DNA of 64,000 bases from Myxococcota bacterium (GTDB taxonomy: Bacteria > Myxococcota_A > Polyangia > Polyangiales > Houyiibacteriaceae). Position numbers and translations under genes: made by a program. The stretch spans positions 29,896-93,895 of the forward strand of contig JBCCEA010000001.1 of the NCBI GenBank assembly GCA_039030515.1, written 5' to 3'. Under the pieces are notes generated by a model. It did not search any database. It saw nothing but the letters and a program-made list of their open reading frames with translations, and had not been told where the DNA came from. Positions within the stretch are counted from its first letter, which is position 1, and every line of letters begins with the position of its first letter. Below, in pieces: positions 18,204 to 23,613 of this stretch.

Positions 18204-18315
18204 GCGCCTACCTCCAATGCTTGAGGCTCCCTGAAGCATCGGCACACCGGGAAGCGTTTTGAACCCGCCTGCCAAAATTGGGCATCAAGGTCGCTGACCT
18301 ACACTCTCTCTATTC

Positions 18316-18558
18316 ATACCGCCTGATCCTTGCTCTGGGGAGCCCGCCGAGGACGCGCTCAGAGTATTCGGGCGATTTCGGATAAGCCTCGCTCTGCTTC
18401 ACACCCGATTGCTGAGGACATCCCCCAATATTTCAGTGCCTTTCATAGGCCAAGCGTTGAGCCGGTATGCGTGATAGGCCTTGGGATACTCCGTAAGGTA
18501 TCTCTTCATCAGAACTGATACGGCGATTCCACCGATCTTTCGCAGTCAGGATCATAAG
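18316..18558 (-). mobile_element. DDE (rve-type, IS481/IS3-like) transposase C-terminal remnant, repeat copy A1
   Basis: About 95% identical to 22243-22485. Minus-strand frames give ...AWPMKGTEILGDVLSNRV* and VKQSEAYPKSPEYSERVLGG..., so it is frameshifted and truncated. Confidence 0.5.
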
Positions 18559-18795
18559 CAGTGCCCGTCGACCCACCCCTCCGCCGACGACACGACTCGG
18601 TGTCTTATGTTGTGGGTCTCTCTTTATTGCAGTTTATTGCGTTCCCTTTTTTATTTTGCAACTCGAGTACCTGATCCTTATCGCGCTGTGTACTTCGTTT
18701 TGGAATCATTGATCGCCGCCTTCGCGACCTCTCTTGCTTACCGCGCTTACAATCGCGCTCGAATCACGCGCCAAGTTCCAGTACTCCCTCGCTAG
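18559..18795 (+). pseudogene. degenerate copy of the RING-like gene retaining only the tail-anchor region (internal deletion of about 590 bp plus a frameshift)
   Basis: GGATCATAAGcaGTGCCCGTCGACCC joins sequences that lie at 22478-22490 and 23077-23090 in the full copy. Homologous tail peptides appear in two different frames. Confidence 0.55.
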
Positions 18796-19135
18796 TTCCT
18801 TGCGCCGCATCCAATGAGTGTTTTGCAAAGCTGAGATACCGGATCCTGCTATGGGAATGCCCAGCTATATAGACTGCTGTACGCGCGGTGCCTTGTATCC
18901 AATTCGCAGGCTTGGAAGAATCGCGCCCTGGATTTTTTGATAGAGACTCTATCCGCTTGCCGTAGGCAATTTCGAATATCTCCGGCAACGTACCCTCGAG
19001 GGCTACGGAGCTCGGAAGCAGGCTTGCCTCATCCGCAAACGCTCTGGCGAATCTTCCAGCGCCCGTCACGAAGAACATCATGGATTCATCACAAAATCTC
19101 TCTGATATTTCATGTTGGCGCTTCTCCTCTTCCAA
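18764..19135 (-). pseudogene. tyrosine recombinase (phage integrase family) C-terminal fragment
   Basis: ...AVYIAGHSHSRIRYLSFAKHSLDAAQ resembles the LGHSS-x-TT-x-Y C-terminal catalytic-Tyr region. Only about 120 aa, with no N-terminal domains. Confidence 0.4.
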
Positions 19136-19322
19136 GAAATGAGAGGGTTTTCAGATGCCGACTAGCTCAGAGATTTCTGCGCCTTTCAGATGCCGAGCAT
19201 CGACCTGGCGTGTGTGATAAACACCGACGAAAGCTCCAGTGCATTTTTCTCCGGCTCGATATTCATACGTACGAGCAAAGACACTGCACTGCATAACTTA
19301 CGCTACAAGGTTAATTAAACAC

Positions 19323-20708
19323 ATGAATGGCTATATAAAAGAAATAACACTCATCGCTTTGTGCATCTTGACTGCTTGTGGTTCAGATTCTGACTCTGCG
19401 CTGGAGACTACCAACATCGACCCTGTGGAAGATGGCAATCAAGGTGATGCGGGCTCCACAGAAAAAGGTGTTCCAGAGGATGGCGGCGAGAAACATATGT
19501 TCCTGATGGTTACAGGACAAGAAGAAATGTCTCGTTACCCTTTTCTCGGATTGCCAGAAGATTCCAAAGAGGACTTGGGTGCCAACGAAGATTGGTTTGT
19601 TCAGCAAGGGTTGAGTGACTTTGTATGGGAGCGAACCACCATTTGGGATGAATCGAGCTACCTGCAGCAAGGCACTGAAACGGAACAGAACGTGAGCGGT
19701 AACTGGGTACCTCTCGACATGTCTTTGATGGCCGATCGGCGCTATTTCACTGTTGCCGCGCTGTATGCGAAACGCTTCGAAGAGACGCATCCTAAGAACC
19801 ACTACCTACACATTGTGGAACATCCTGGCCCAGAAAGTGTGGAGGCTCCCTATCTCATGGAGCCTAACGACCTTTGTGAAGATCAGAGTTCTACAGATCG
19901 AGCTCGCCTGGGCTTTCCTGCATCGGGCCAAACCTGGCATCCGGTGGAAATGGATTTATGGTCTGAATACTACCGGTCAAGTTGGTGTTCTATCTTTCAG
20001 ACGGAACCCCCGGCAGAGCAAGTAGGGTACGACTATCAGTCATGGGGTTTTTGGTGGGCCTACGAAGATTTTTATCGCCGGCCGCTTCTAGCCCTTGAGG
20101 ACCCCGCGAGTCTGATCAGGGAGGTTACCGGTGCTGAGCCCCTAGGCGCAGTACCACCGAGCATATCTGTTGATCTTGCCGCTATTTGGTTCACTCAAGG
20201 TCATCGGGATGCTTGGTCCAATCTGGCAGAGAAAATTGAGCCTCCCACTGCTGATGAATACGCGAGCGACTTGAGCGCGGTCTTCGATGGTTTTGCGGAG
20301 GTGTCATCAGAGCGGGAAATTCTAGCTCCCGATCACATCTTTGTGGTCGCACTACCGCCGTGGACGGAAGCAGATACGAGGAGAACCCAGCTCGTTTCGT
20401 CCGGGGATACGCCGGTATGGGAGTGTGCAACTCTTCCAGAAGACGAACGCGATATCGAAGCTGAGACAAGATTCGCTCTAGTCCGAGAGGCCCAGCATCA
20501 GGTCACTGAAAGGCCTGCATACGACACCCTGGACAATCGCACTCTCGTAGAGACTAGCGTCGAGGACTGGCCGGTAGACGAATTTGAATGTGCGGATCAG
20601 GGCACCGTTCAGTACGGAGACGCTAGCGAGGGTAATCTCAATACCGCCTTTCTCGAGCGCGGATCGGAACTCTTGGTCGAGTTTTCTCTCTCAACCCTGA
20701 CCCAGTGA
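19323..20708 (+). CDS. orphan lipoprotein, acidic, Trp-rich (possible inactivated SASA/SGNH-like fold)
   Basis: MNGYIKEITLIALCILTA-C lipobox. FLMVTGQEEM and AIWFTQGHRD resemble the GQSNM and WyQGE motifs of sialate-O-acetylesterase-like proteins, but the catalytic positions are substituted. Confidence 0.65.
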   Translation: MNGYIKEITLIALCILTACGSDSDSALETTNIDPVEDGNQGDAGSTEKGVPEDGGEKHMFLMVTGQEEMSRYPFLGLPEDSKEDLGANEDWFVQQGLSDFVWERTTIWDESSYLQQGTETEQNVSGNWVPLDMSLMADRRYFTVAALYAKRFEETHPKNHYLHIVEHPGPESVEAPYLMEPNDLCEDQSSTDRARLGFPASGQTWHPVEMDLWSEYYRSSWCSIFQTEPPAEQVGYDYQSWGFWWAYEDFYRRPLLALEDPASLIREVTGAEPLGAVPPSISVDLAAIWFTQGHRDAWSNLAEKIEPPTADEYASDLSAVFDGFAEVSSEREILAPDHIFVVALPPWTEADTRRTQLVSSGDTPVWECATLPEDERDIEAETRFALVREAQHQVTERPAYDTLDNRTLVETSVEDWPVDEFECADQGTVQYGDASEGNLNTAFLERGSELLVEFSLSTLTQ

Positions 20709-20780
20709 ACCCAATGGCACTCACTAAAGGACTATACGAATAGTGAGCAGGAGTCGATCCTTACCACCCAGCCGCACGGA

Positions 20781-22125: not shown

Positions 22126-22485
22126 TTACGGCAGTTCGGGCAAGGGTTGGTGCATAGGCGTCGAGCCGAAGTGCTCGACGCGGGCAGTGGACTCTTCCGG
22201 TGTTGGGTAGCCGAGGGCGGCATGCTGCCGCTCTTCGATGTAATACCGCCTGATCCTTGCTTCGAGGAGTCCGCCGAGGACGCGCTCAGAGTATTCGGGC
22301 GATTTCGGATAAGCCTCGCTCTGTTTCACACCCGATTGCTGAGGACATCCCTCAATATTTCAGTGCCTTTCATAGGCCAAGCGTTGAGCCGGTATGCGTG
22401 ATAGGCCTTCGGATACTCCGTAAGGTATCTCCTCATCAGAACTGATACGGCGATTCCAACGATCTTTCGCAGTCAGGATCATAAG
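22126..22485 (-). mobile_element. DDE (rve-type) transposase C-terminal remnant, repeat copy A2 (longer, frameshifted)
   Basis: ORF 22126-22329 ends ...RIRRYYIEERQHAALGYPTPEES, matching the YN-x-ER-x-H-x-ALG-x-x-TP motif. The upstream part is in another frame. Confidence 0.5.
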
Positions 22486-22487
22486 TC

Positions 22488-23285
22488 GTGCAACATCGTT
22501 ACCGCCATTCGACTACCCCACCAGAACCAGAGTCACCCGCTCTCTATGTTCTGCCTCCTCCCTTATTGCGACATTCTCCACCGAGTGGGGCGGCTGTGGC
22601 GTTTCGCGTTACATCCCCGGAAATACATTCAAGCCTAGGACGCCCGGTGACGGTAGTTGTGGAGCGAGTGGGGGTTCCTCCCAAGTTTGAAATGCCGGAG
22701 ATATGTCCCTGTTGTTATGGCTCACTCGACGCCGGTCTATTCCCCGTTTTCGGATTATATCAATGCCAACCACGAGGAGCTGGCAAACTCATAATTCATG
22801 CTTTCTGCCCTGCGTGCACACACCGACTAGCAACAAGCGATAATGTAAAAAATTGTCCACTTTGTAGGAAGCCAATGCATCCTGCTTGGAGCCGAGTAAG
22901 TCCGTCGTGCCGCCAAGAAGTGATGAGCGCGCTCGTCCAACCATGGTCTGGCGCCTCGCTTCCGTCTCCAGCGCGACAAAATCCGCTTCAGCTTCAAATG
23001 CAACGAAGTCTAGATGAACTTCTTTCAGGTGCGGCTAATAAGGTGACAATACAATTGCCACCACCGCAAAGGAATCGTGCCCGTCGACCCGACCCTCTGC
23101 CGGAACCGTTGGTCCTCGCTTGCGGGTCCTTAATATTTGCGAGTGCAAGCGCTTACTTTTTTTATTATGCAAATCGACAATCTGAATTGCGTTGCATTTT
23201 GTACGCCATTGCTGGATTTTTCTTCGCCGCCTTCACTGTCATGTTTGCTTATTTTACGTATGATACGTACAGAAACGGCGTGTAA
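22488..23285 (+). CDS. tail-anchored RING-like zinc-finger protein, paralog 2
   Basis: CPCC-x16-C-x10-H-x2-C-x2-C-x12-CPLCRKPM-x3-WSR, linker LPPPQRNRARRPDPLPEP, and two C-terminal hydrophobic helices. The GTG start is uncertain. Confidence 0.7.
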   Translation: MQHRYRHSTTPPEPESPALYVLPPPLLRHSPPSGAAVAFRVTSPEIHSSLGRPVTVVVERVGVPPKFEMPEICPCCYGSLDAGLFPVFGLYQCQPRGAGKLIIHAFCPACTHRLATSDNVKNCPLCRKPMHPAWSRVSPSCRQEVMSALVQPWSGASLPSPARQNPLQLQMQRSLDELLSGAANKVTIQLPPPQRNRARRPDPLPEPLVLACGSLIFASASAYFFYYANRQSELRCILYAIAGFFFAAFTVMFAYFTYDTYRNGV

Positions 23286-23293
23286 GATAGCCT

Positions 23294-23353
23294 TCGCTAG
23301 TTCCTCGCGCCGCATCCAATGAGTATGTTGCGAAGCTGAGGTACCGGAGCCTG
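23294..23353. repeat. repeat B2 (about 60 bp), paralogous to 18789-18849; marks the right edge of the duplicated unit
   Basis: TCGCTAGTTCCT(T)GCGCCGCATCCAATGAGT...GCTGAG.TACCGGA.CCTGC is shared. On the minus strand both encode R-YLSFA..SLDAA.GTSEG. Confidence 0.8.
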
Positions 23354-23613
23354 CCGCGGTAGGTCTCCCGGTCCAGTTTGGTGGCGCGGCGGCAGAGTGG
23401 CGTTTGGGTCTGACCTGCACTGCGTAGCCAACGGTCTCCCGTTGCGGACTGGGCGTTGATTCTCAGAGCCGGTCCGAGTACGCTCGGCGCTGAGGTGACC
23501 CTTCAACCCGAGCGTCCAGGGACTTCTACCGCCGTCGTTCTCTTGAATAGCGGCGATCTAGACGTGCACATGCGCAAGAGCACCAGGAAACGCCTACTCT
23601 TGGAGCATCTCGG

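Follow-up and report, generated by a model that had tools for sequence, protein, structure and literature searches.

A probable flexible accessory islet encoding RING-like membrane proteins at the flgG|flgA junction of a myxobacterial flagellar cluster

In a 64-kb stretch of DNA from an uncultured member of the Myxococcota (hereafter the window), whose genome has a full complement of flagellar genes, the flagellar cluster is split, and the segment at 18304-23354 that lies within the split is probably a flexible, strain-level accessory islet. In particular, we favor the idea that the islet occupies a variable gap at an ancestral flgG|flgA junction and has as its cargo an orphan lipoprotein gene together with genes for RING-like transmembrane (RING-TM) proteins. 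A reading of this DNA made from its letters and open reading frames (ORFs) had described a decayed mobile insertion with cargo of unknown function, marked by insertion sequence (IS) and integrase scars and lying between cheX and the luxR/flgG end of the cluster. The location of that segment and the resulting split of the flagellar genes were borne out, as were its accessory and non-ancestral character, its atypical composition, and its orphan cargo; the IS and integrase scars that were to account for it were not.

Gene order, composition, and sister-genome identity of the islet

On the minus strand the flagellar genes run from 35.4 to 24.6 kb in the order fliL...flhA-flhF-flhG-fliA-flgF-flgG and then, beyond a gap, from 15.8 kb downwards as flgA-flgH-flgI-flgJ-flgM...flgK-flgL. 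The gap between flgA and flgG (15805-24645; 8.8 kb) contains a gene for a 397-amino-acid (aa) protein, cheY and cheX, all on the minus strand, together with the islet and the gene for a LuxR-type regulator on the plus strand. Note that the genes of the islet are thus all oriented opposite to the flagellar genes. When we compared the gene order in related loci, flgG was followed within 70-290 bp by flgA-flgH-flgI in five genomes (L006, L017, L020, L021, and L022), with the rest of the cluster ordered as in the window. Unrelated inserts of 1.3-7 kb occupy the same junction in L011, L029, L009, L005, and L023, and in the closest species (L002-L004, L007, L008, and L010) 8-10 kb of unrelated genes come after flgG. 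The adjacency of flgG and flgA in relatives implies that this arrangement is likely ancestral and that the junction is a recurrent breakpoint. No homologue of cheX, cheY, the 397-aa gene, luxR, the lipoprotein gene, or the RING genes was found at the junction in any relative examined, so the contents of the gap are absent from the same site in relatives. (Note that the nearest other species in the GTDB taxonomy are Polyangiales/Sandaracinaceae-type metagenome-assembled genomes (MAGs), with FlgG identities of 65-78%, so that even the nearest of these is only 78% identical.) A metagenome scan with CheX returned nothing on the synteny around cheX, and a scan with CheY returned distant loci only, which do not resolve the content upstream of cheX. 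The sequence-only reading was therefore right to see a non-ancestral segment here and drew it too small, as the gap also includes cheX, cheY, the 397-aa gene, and luxR, which are of native composition. The whole 8.8-kb gap is derived, and its compositionally foreign part is 18304-23354 only.

The GC content of 18290-23600, the interval for which a lower-GC island had been proposed, is 0.539 as compared to 0.5775 in the remainder of the window. This value is about 2 standard deviations (SD) under the mean of the 5.3-kb segments tested and no more than 0.005 above their minimum (0.535, for the segment starting at 18001). The dip is uneven, with 19000-19750 at 0.47-0.48 and 20500-21250 at 0.63-0.65. 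Codon usage deviates as well: GC at third codon positions (GC3) is 0.41 and 0.42 in the two RING genes and 0.52 in the lipoprotein gene, whereas the other genes of the window range from 0.51 to 0.71 and fall mostly between 0.57 and 0.67 (about 0.61 for the host). GC3 is 0.60-0.64 in cheY, the 397-aa gene, and luxR, which look native, and 0.55 in cheX, at the low end of the native range. Moreover, segments starting at 16.5-21 kb have a dinucleotide delta* of 60-73 (35.5 +/- 13.5 in general) and a tetranucleotide distance of up to 17.8 (11.3 +/- 1.7 in general), and both measures reach their 64-kb peak there. Thus, GC, GC3, delta*, and tetranucleotide distance all set the islet apart from its host, and the lower-GC island stands as a compositional anomaly and not as a uniform dip. 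Non-coding pieces of the islet have GC contents of 0.52, 0.55, 0.62, and 0.69, mostly within the 0.46-0.66 of other intergenic DNA, which implies that part of the GC dip reflects low coding density.

The age of the islet can be judged by comparison with a second genome, MAG GCA_039027755.1 from sample SRR22824308 (the sister genome). Outside the islet, the sister MAG is 98.5% identical to the window over 8845-16344 (104 mismatches in 7,509 bp), 98.1% identical over 15793-17563 (33 mismatches in 1,771 bp), and 98.1% identical over 27356-32674 (84 mismatches in 5,337 bp); for luxR, compared by way of a Logan contig from the sister sample, identity is 99.5% (6 mismatches in 1,154 bp). Over 20047-23111, within the islet, identity is 100%, with 0 mismatches in 3,065 bp. 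Given the 221 mismatches in 14,617 bp of flanking DNA, 46 would be expected in the islet stretch (Poisson P 7e-21), which implies that the islet has its own, younger history. Either the islet was shared very recently by transfer or recombination, or it is carried by a strain of the window's type only, which was co-binned in the sister MAG; the islet is strain-variable and young either way.

These findings also bear on whether the segment could be native DNA under little constraint and of no foreign origin, whose young, lineage-specific genes are being duplicated, are decaying, and are becoming richer in AT. On this view, the GC dip would be due to low coding density and relaxed selection only. 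Such a history would fit with the lack of mobility genes, with the disruption of two of the three RING copies, with a RING family known from this population only, with non-coding GC contents mostly in the range of other intergenic DNA, and with an flgG|flgA junction that is a clade-wide hotspot of rearrangement. However, 0 differences in 3,065 bp between flanks that differ by 1.5-1.9% is the opposite of what relaxed vertical inheritance should leave. In addition, no other part of the window deviates as strongly in its di- and tetranucleotide signature, a measure that goes beyond GC, and a GC3 of 0.41-0.42 is found in an intact ORF with conserved ligands when that of the host is about 0.61. We therefore consider a purely native origin very unlikely.

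Flexible islets that are not themselves mobile and are swapped by way of conserved flanking genes often lie beside flagellar or other surface-structure clusters in environmental bacteria. The segment described here resembles them in its fixed site between conserved genes, its lineage-specific content, its atypical composition, its divergence decoupled from that of the flanks, and the fact that no resident integrase or transposase was found. It differs from them in that its cargo comprises an orphan lipoprotein and RING-like membrane proteins and not genes for glycosylation or surface polysaccharides, and in that exchange is here inferred. As a genomic feature, then, the islet is of an ordinary kind: small, flexible, and located at a junction that is prone to rearrangement. 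Presumably without a working mobility gene of its own, it would be gained, lost, and swapped between co-occurring strains through homologous recombination in the conserved flanking genes. Two points count against this account, namely that transfer by flanking homology is our inference, no donor, junction variant, or island-free allele having been seen, and that the 100% identity could mean only that the second sample holds a strain of the window's type that was binned with a 98% relative.

Repeats D1 and D3 and the question of transposase and integrase remains

The left end of the islet is formed by the first copy of a 261-bp repeat, D1 (18304-18564), of which 247 of 262 aligned positions are identical to a second copy at 22231-22491. 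The two copies, approximately 95% identical and in direct orientation, bracket 3.9 kb of cargo. Copy 1 begins 29 nucleotides (nt) upstream of the longest cheX ORF; copy 2, which contig L166 of the sister genome spans whole, ends at the GTG start codon of an intact RING-TM gene (22488-23285). A 64-nt repeat, D3, is present at 18786-18849 and 23291-23354 (89% identity), with its second copy starting 6 nt past the stop codon of the same RING gene and marking the right edge of the low-GC part. D3 forms the end of a more extended homology, in which 18561-18849 and 23077-23354 are 67% identical (blastn, 293 columns). Relative to copy 2, copy 1 is without 585 bp (22492-23076), a stretch with GTGC at each of its edges. 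The core of D1 recurs a third time, as a more divergent fragment, at 19165-19220, some 100 bp upstream of the ATG of the lipoprotein gene; this fragment is 74% identical to 22350-22403, and its local alignment score of 49 is about 8 SD above that of 300 shuffled sequences (20.7 +/- 3.4; maximum 36). We found no further copies of D1 or D3 within the window. D1 and D3 are thus better described as the sequences that flank an orphan gene, upstream and downstream respectively, in a duplicated cassette consisting of D1, a RING-TM gene, and D3.

The two D1 copies share 95% identity, as against 67% for the homologous DNA next to them. This contrast implies either gene conversion or a later round of copying, and gene conversion may well be what holds D1 at this level. 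More generally, the interior of the islet would be reshaped by recombination between its repeats, by deletion bounded by microhomology (GTGC), and by slippage at a G tract (see below); recombination between the two D1 copies could result in the loss of 3.9 kb. (Note that we also entertained the idea that D1 encodes a structured RNA. This idea was rejected, as there was no Rfam match and folding of D1 copy 2 gave minimum-free-energy z-scores near 0 on both strands.)

The sequence-only reading had identified two copies of the C-terminal remnant of a DDE transposase, at 18316-18558 and 22126-22485, and an integrase-like fragment at 18764-19135 with a related scrap at 23294. The repeat exists, with the limits given above, and 22126-22230 is unique to copy 2. 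This minus-strand tail (22126-22230), with the motif YYIEERQHAALGYPTPEE, provides the sole transposase-like signal, namely a likeness to the rve C-terminus: the best Pfam match of the motif is to rve_3 (E=0.069; 13.3 bits with a cut-off of 26.5) over 21 residues, and it vanishes once longer or whole frames are scanned. In hhalign, YYIEERQHAALGYPTPEE falls at the expected C-terminal position of the IS3/IS150 OrfB, yet with P=0.28. Smith-Waterman scores of D1 plus the tail with E. coli IS3 InsF and IS150 InsK equal those of shuffled sequences. Similarly, there was no match at E<=1 when the minus-strand frames of the three repeat regions were scanned with Pfam, no transposase similarity in NCBIfam or PHROGs, no transposase match by tblastn against 72,556 plasmids, and none among 5.8 billion protein clusters (a set that includes this sample's own assembly); nor did the DNA of the islet match the plasmids by blastn. 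No inverted repeats frame 22126-23420 or 18304-19200, the only such pair being a 7-bp TGATCCT/AGGATCA inside D1, and no target-site duplications or flanking direct repeats were found around the region. All tests of the transposase assignment other than the rve_3 match were thus negative, and we do not classify the repeats as remnants of a DDE (rve; IS3/IS481-type) transposase.

The integrase assignment fared no better. The 123-aa minus-strand ORF at 18764-19135, where NCBI annotates nothing, is probably non-coding: it has no match in Pfam, NCBIfam, or the PDB or by plasmid tblastn, and its best match in PHROGs (E=0.044) is to a family of unknown function. The GHS...Y spacing that can be read by eye in this ORF is unlike the R..HxxR..Y motif and is absent from the second copy. 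The related scrap at 23294 is the 64-nt repeat D3; the frames of 23294-23500 have no similarity to tyrosine recombinases or phage integrases in the libraries searched. A tyrosine recombinase or integrase fragment at 18764-19135 was accordingly rejected. Integration at a tRNA site was also rejected, since there is no tRNA gene near the islet and the only one in the window is at 49166. Thus, the combination of a tRNA gene, a mobility gene, and flanking repeats that marks classical genomic islands is not found here, and the repeats that are present are internal.

We nevertheless weighed the possibility that the segment is a decayed mobile insertion in which D1 and the tail are the 3' end of an IS3/IS481-type transposase gene on the minus strand, the D3 region is what remains of an integrase or of the N-terminus of the transposase, and the cargo was once framed by two IS copies and moved by them as a composite element. 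The likeness to such remnants and to composite transposons lies in the two direct copies of D1 that bracket 3.9 kb of cargo and in the motif of approximately 20 residues that recalls the rve C-terminus, has the weak rve_3 match, and is placed by hhalign at the correct relative position. Furthermore, D1 plus the tail is collinear, though not significantly so, with the last approximately 90 residues of IS3-family OrfB, including a GVSEGLSR that by eye resembles the GI..SMSR motif of IS150 InsK; the span 22126-23420 would be about the size of an IS3-family element; and the low GC, the orphan cargo, and the absence from relatives are all as expected. However, nothing significant was found in the 5.8 billion protein clusters, plasmids, NCBIfam, PHROGs, or the minus-strand Pfam scans, the Smith-Waterman and hhalign comparisons gave no support, and the segment lacks terminal inverted repeats, target duplications, and another copy within 64 kb. 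Moreover, the integrase ORF is without any support, and the interior of the would-be element holds a real gene on the opposite strand that is conserved in a third protein. We therefore regard a decayed mobile insertion as unlikely; an IS origin of D1 itself is unproven and has only a modest chance of being correct. Short motifs, as this case warns, are a poor basis for calling transposase or integrase scars.

Because 261-bp repeats at 95% identity can mislead assemblers, we also considered whether the islet is not truly located between cheX and luxR and instead reflects a chimeric join or a contaminant of the bin. The Logan assemblies of the source run (SRR22824269) contain the exact proteins of the window, which correspond to the NCBI MAG proteins MEM7446640-52, encoded on a 253-kb contig. 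Contigs of this run tile 8930-18373, 18502-22300, 22429-24586, and 24590-35425 with identities of 99.96-100%, and the only breaks are in the 14-nt tandem repeat and within each copy of D1, so that the connection through the middle of D1 copy 1 (18374-18501) has support from no assembly other than the window's own. Nonetheless, independent contigs run from cheX to 18373, from 18502 through the cargo to 22300, and from 22429 through the intact RING gene into luxR, and each bears the copy-specific single-nucleotide polymorphisms of D1. In addition, the sister-genome contig spans the lipoprotein gene, the middle RING gene, all of D1 copy 2, and the intact RING gene. An artefact of assembly or binning is thus extremely unlikely. 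(The D3-luxR join of the window is also seen in a third sample, a 97.2%-identical contig of which has its start in D3 copy 2 and extends into luxR.)

A RING-like membrane protein family and a poly-G tract

The intact RING-TM gene (22488-23285, plus strand; GC3 0.42), present as an exact gene on a Logan contig, encodes a 265-aa protein (RING265) with a Pro-rich N-terminus, putative zinc ligands from C73 to C126 (22704-22865), and hydrophobic helices at residues 207-226 and 233-258. The ORF at 21078-21716 (RING212) forms part of an out-of-frame paralogue at 20743-21716 on the plus strand, with RING ligands at 21171-21347; the two ORFs are paralogues by sequence (E=7e-10; 33% identity over 107 residues). 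When a profile of the shared domain was compared to 1.84 billion representative proteins, it recovered the query itself and one other protein only (E=2e-5). This protein, P0002, is from the sister sample SRR22824308, is 351 aa in length, and has an AGGAGG ribosome-binding site upstream of its gene. (Its locus, L085, is a 1347-bp contig that has a GC content of 0.54 and is not similar to the window in DNA sequence.) No member of the family was found in viral contigs, and tblastx of the islet with 80 related loci and the rest of the window gave nothing real. Consistent with what the sequence-only reading had supposed, the searches for families and homologues thus left the cargo genes as orphans.

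Eight ligands are invariant in RING265, RING212, and P0002 (C73, C76, C93, H104, C107, C110, C123, and C126 in RING265), and in all three proteins they are arranged as C-x2-C-x15/16-C-x10/14-H-x2-C-x2-C-x12/16-C-x2-C, with the last pair within a CP-x-C-[RG]-K-P motif. The order of ligands (C-C-C-H-C-C-C-C) is that of the C3HC4 class. According to hydropathy, each of the three proteins has one or two C-terminal hydrophobic helices, and in each the N-terminus is Pro-rich. Each of the three also has several RING matches in Pfam that fall short of the cut-offs. A profile of the three sequences matched mostly RING E3 domains in the PDB, including RAD5 (E=0.0025), RING1B/RING2 (0.003-0.008), NOT4, RNF24, RNF4, and TRIMs. 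These matches are supportive but marginal.

Prokaryotic RING families have been surveyed by Burroughs, Iyer and Aravind (2011), as cited in PMC7159879. With the RING E3 domains of the Pfam families zf-C3HC4, zf-RING_2, and Prok-RING_1 the islet proteins share the eight ligands in C3HC4 order and the CP-x-C-[RG]-K-P end of the domain, and they differ from them in several respects that argue against calling the domain a RING outright. In particular, the loop between ligands 3 and 4 has 10 residues in RING265, 12 in RING212, and 14 in P0002, where 1-3 are canonical (the other spacings fit); the Pfam scores are all below their cut-offs (zf-C3HC4_3, 19.1 bits with a cut-off of 27; zf-C3HC4, 17.8 with 21; Prok-RING_1, 16.9 with 29.1); AlphaFold models of RING265 and of the RING domain were unusable, with predicted local distance difference test (pLDDT) scores of 42.8 and 44.8; and the proteins are known from sequence alone. 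We therefore refer to the domain as RING-like and not as a proven RING. Unlike described prokaryotic ubiquitin-like systems, the islet has no E1, E2, or JAB genes nearby. In eukaryotes, RNF5 and RNF185 have an N-terminal RING followed by C-terminal membrane helices, and the architecture of the islet proteins is reminiscent of theirs. Most likely, the RING proteins would be membrane-tethered zinc fingers that face the cytoplasm and serve in protein-protein contacts or have E3-like activity. As to annotation, the NCBI accessions of CheX, the lipoprotein, and the LuxR-type regulator are consecutive, leaving both RING-like genes without a protein record, and the Logan gene caller placed short minus-strand ORFs where the middle RING gene is. 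The missing accessions and the atypical codon usage of the two genes count against the account favored here.

This small and fast-diverging family is present in the islet in three states: intact (22488-23285), off-frame at a G10 tract (20743-21716), and missing 585 bp (18561-18795). The last of these, on the plus strand, makes up with D3 copy 1 a degenerate pseudogene copy at 18561-18849 that has lost the DNA for its N-terminus and RING domain, and the hydrophobic, C-terminal-like stretch that remains is found in two different frames. In the middle copy, the RING frame is open from 20709 and has its first start codon, a TTG, at 21078; the alignment to P0002, however, begins 23 residues upstream of this TTG. 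A GTG at 20743 in the +1 frame, with AAGGA 11 nt upstream, is followed 13 codons later by the G10 tract (20781-20790), and one extra G, or two fewer, fuses this start to the RING frame. With one G added the product is a protein of 324 aa, the alignment of which to P0002 extends over 251 columns (E=1.6e-15). G10 is the only G/C run of at least 10 in the 64 kb, where 0.065 would be expected. Separately, a G7 run at 21068-21074, 280 bp downstream in the same RING gene, provides in-frame codons for QGGH; G10 and G7 are all the G/C runs of at least 7 in the 64 kb.

In Neisseria, Haemophilus, and Campylobacter, phase-variable contingency genes carry 5' poly-G/C tracts. The middle RING copy resembles these genes in that a 5' homopolymer sets the frame: G10 lies 13 codons after a start with a ribosome-binding site, and a 310-codon open frame follows one base out of register. 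The copy differs from them in that no length polymorphism was seen, as all three assemblies have G10, which speaks against a switch, and a plain frameshift is enough to account for it. Thus, there are two readings of the middle copy, as a pseudogene with a frameshift and as a switch that works by slippage, and both fit the data equally well. We know of no description of poly-G switching of this kind in the Myxococcota, although no literature search was aimed at it.

The lipoprotein gene, the cheX upstream region, and flanking genes

The remaining cargo gene (19323-20708, plus strand; GC3 0.52) encodes an acidic, 461-aa lipoprotein (isoelectric point 4.1) with a signal peptide and the lipobox LTAC. 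It is present as an exact gene on a Logan contig and is listed by NCBI as the hypothetical protein MEM7446646.1; no family or homologue was detected with Pfam, NCBIfam, PHROGs, and further homologue searches. A distance of 35 nt separates its end from the GTG of the middle RING copy.

On the left, the islet is flanked by cheX (17694-18275, minus strand; GC3 0.55), the product of which matches Pfam CheX above the cut-off (E=4.6e-7). The longest cheX ORF starts with the TTG at 18275, while gene callers place the start at 18203 (169 aa) or at approximately 18194 (166 aa, NCBI), so that D1 copy 1 begins 29-110 nt upstream of the possible starts, in agreement with the earlier suggestion that the island occupies the expected site of the cheX promoter. 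D1 copy 1 would then occupy the region in which the promoter of a cheX-cheY-397-aa transcript, possibly extending to flgA-flgH-flgI, is expected. Scans upstream of cheX for sigma-70, sigma-28, and sigma-54 consensus sequences returned no convincing site. On the right, the gene for the LuxR-type regulator (23617-24507, plus strand; GerE E=3.5e-14; NCBI MEM7446647.1) lies on the same strand as the islet genes and, with a GC3 of 0.64, is of native composition. (A literature search for the accessions returned no paper.)

Several other observations concern the surroundings of the islet. luxR and flgG are convergent, and their 3' ends are separated by a tandem array of the 14-nt unit GACCCAGTGTCTAT (24533-24630), with about five near-perfect copies and degenerate ones; contigs of three different samples stop at 24586 and restart at 24590, and the copy number, which is uncertain, may vary. 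The acidic 397-aa protein (15967-17160, minus strand) is unannotated and without a Pfam match. Homologues of its C-terminal ~130 residues are, however, encoded directly downstream of cheY in at least 11 unrelated metagenome contigs (L103, L112, L114, L124, L130, L134, L138, L144, L156, L159, and L164), so that cheY and this domain look like a conserved pair. An E-x2-N motif of the CheC/CheX-like kind can be read by eye in the domain. A sigma-54-like element, TGGCACGTTCAGTGCT, with one mismatch to TGGCAC-N5-TTGCW, is located at 15800-15815 on the minus strand, a short distance upstream of the position at which flgA is called to start (15786); matches of this type are somewhat enriched in the window (40, with 26 +/- 5 expected). 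Two adjoining flagellin-type (Flagellin_N) genes at 8019-9921 have repeated ends in common, and the last 68 bases of a Logan contig that ends at 8930 also match 8806-8873 with 94% identity. Finally, whereas cultured Myxococcota move by gliding and with pili, a near-complete set of flagellar and chemotaxis genes is present here in a member of this group, and the same cluster is found in about 28 related MAGs.

A bolder proposal, and one that we consider quite unlikely as a whole, is that the islet is a contingency locus of one myxobacterial population for a previously undescribed family of membrane-anchored, RING-type (E3-ligase-like) proteins. Such a locus would diversify by duplication, deletion, and poly-G slippage and would sweep between strains as a unit; its products may act on the ubiquitin machinery of eukaryotic prey or hosts, or on the cell's own envelope or flagellar proteins, and the promoter region of cheX-cheY, and perhaps of flgA-flgH-flgI, would be provided by one of the repeats.

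With respect to the flexible accessory islet that we favor, the findings presented here have three implications. Among uncultured, flagellated myxobacteria, flagellar clusters have been broken repeatedly at the flgG|flgA junction. The identity of 100% in the islet and 98% in its flanks provides a clear-cut and testable example of recent exchange, or of strain-specific carriage, for a segment in which no mobility gene was found. And the RING-like membrane family, which has one detectable relative among 1.84 billion representative proteins, would, if active, represent a new lineage of bacterial RING proteins.

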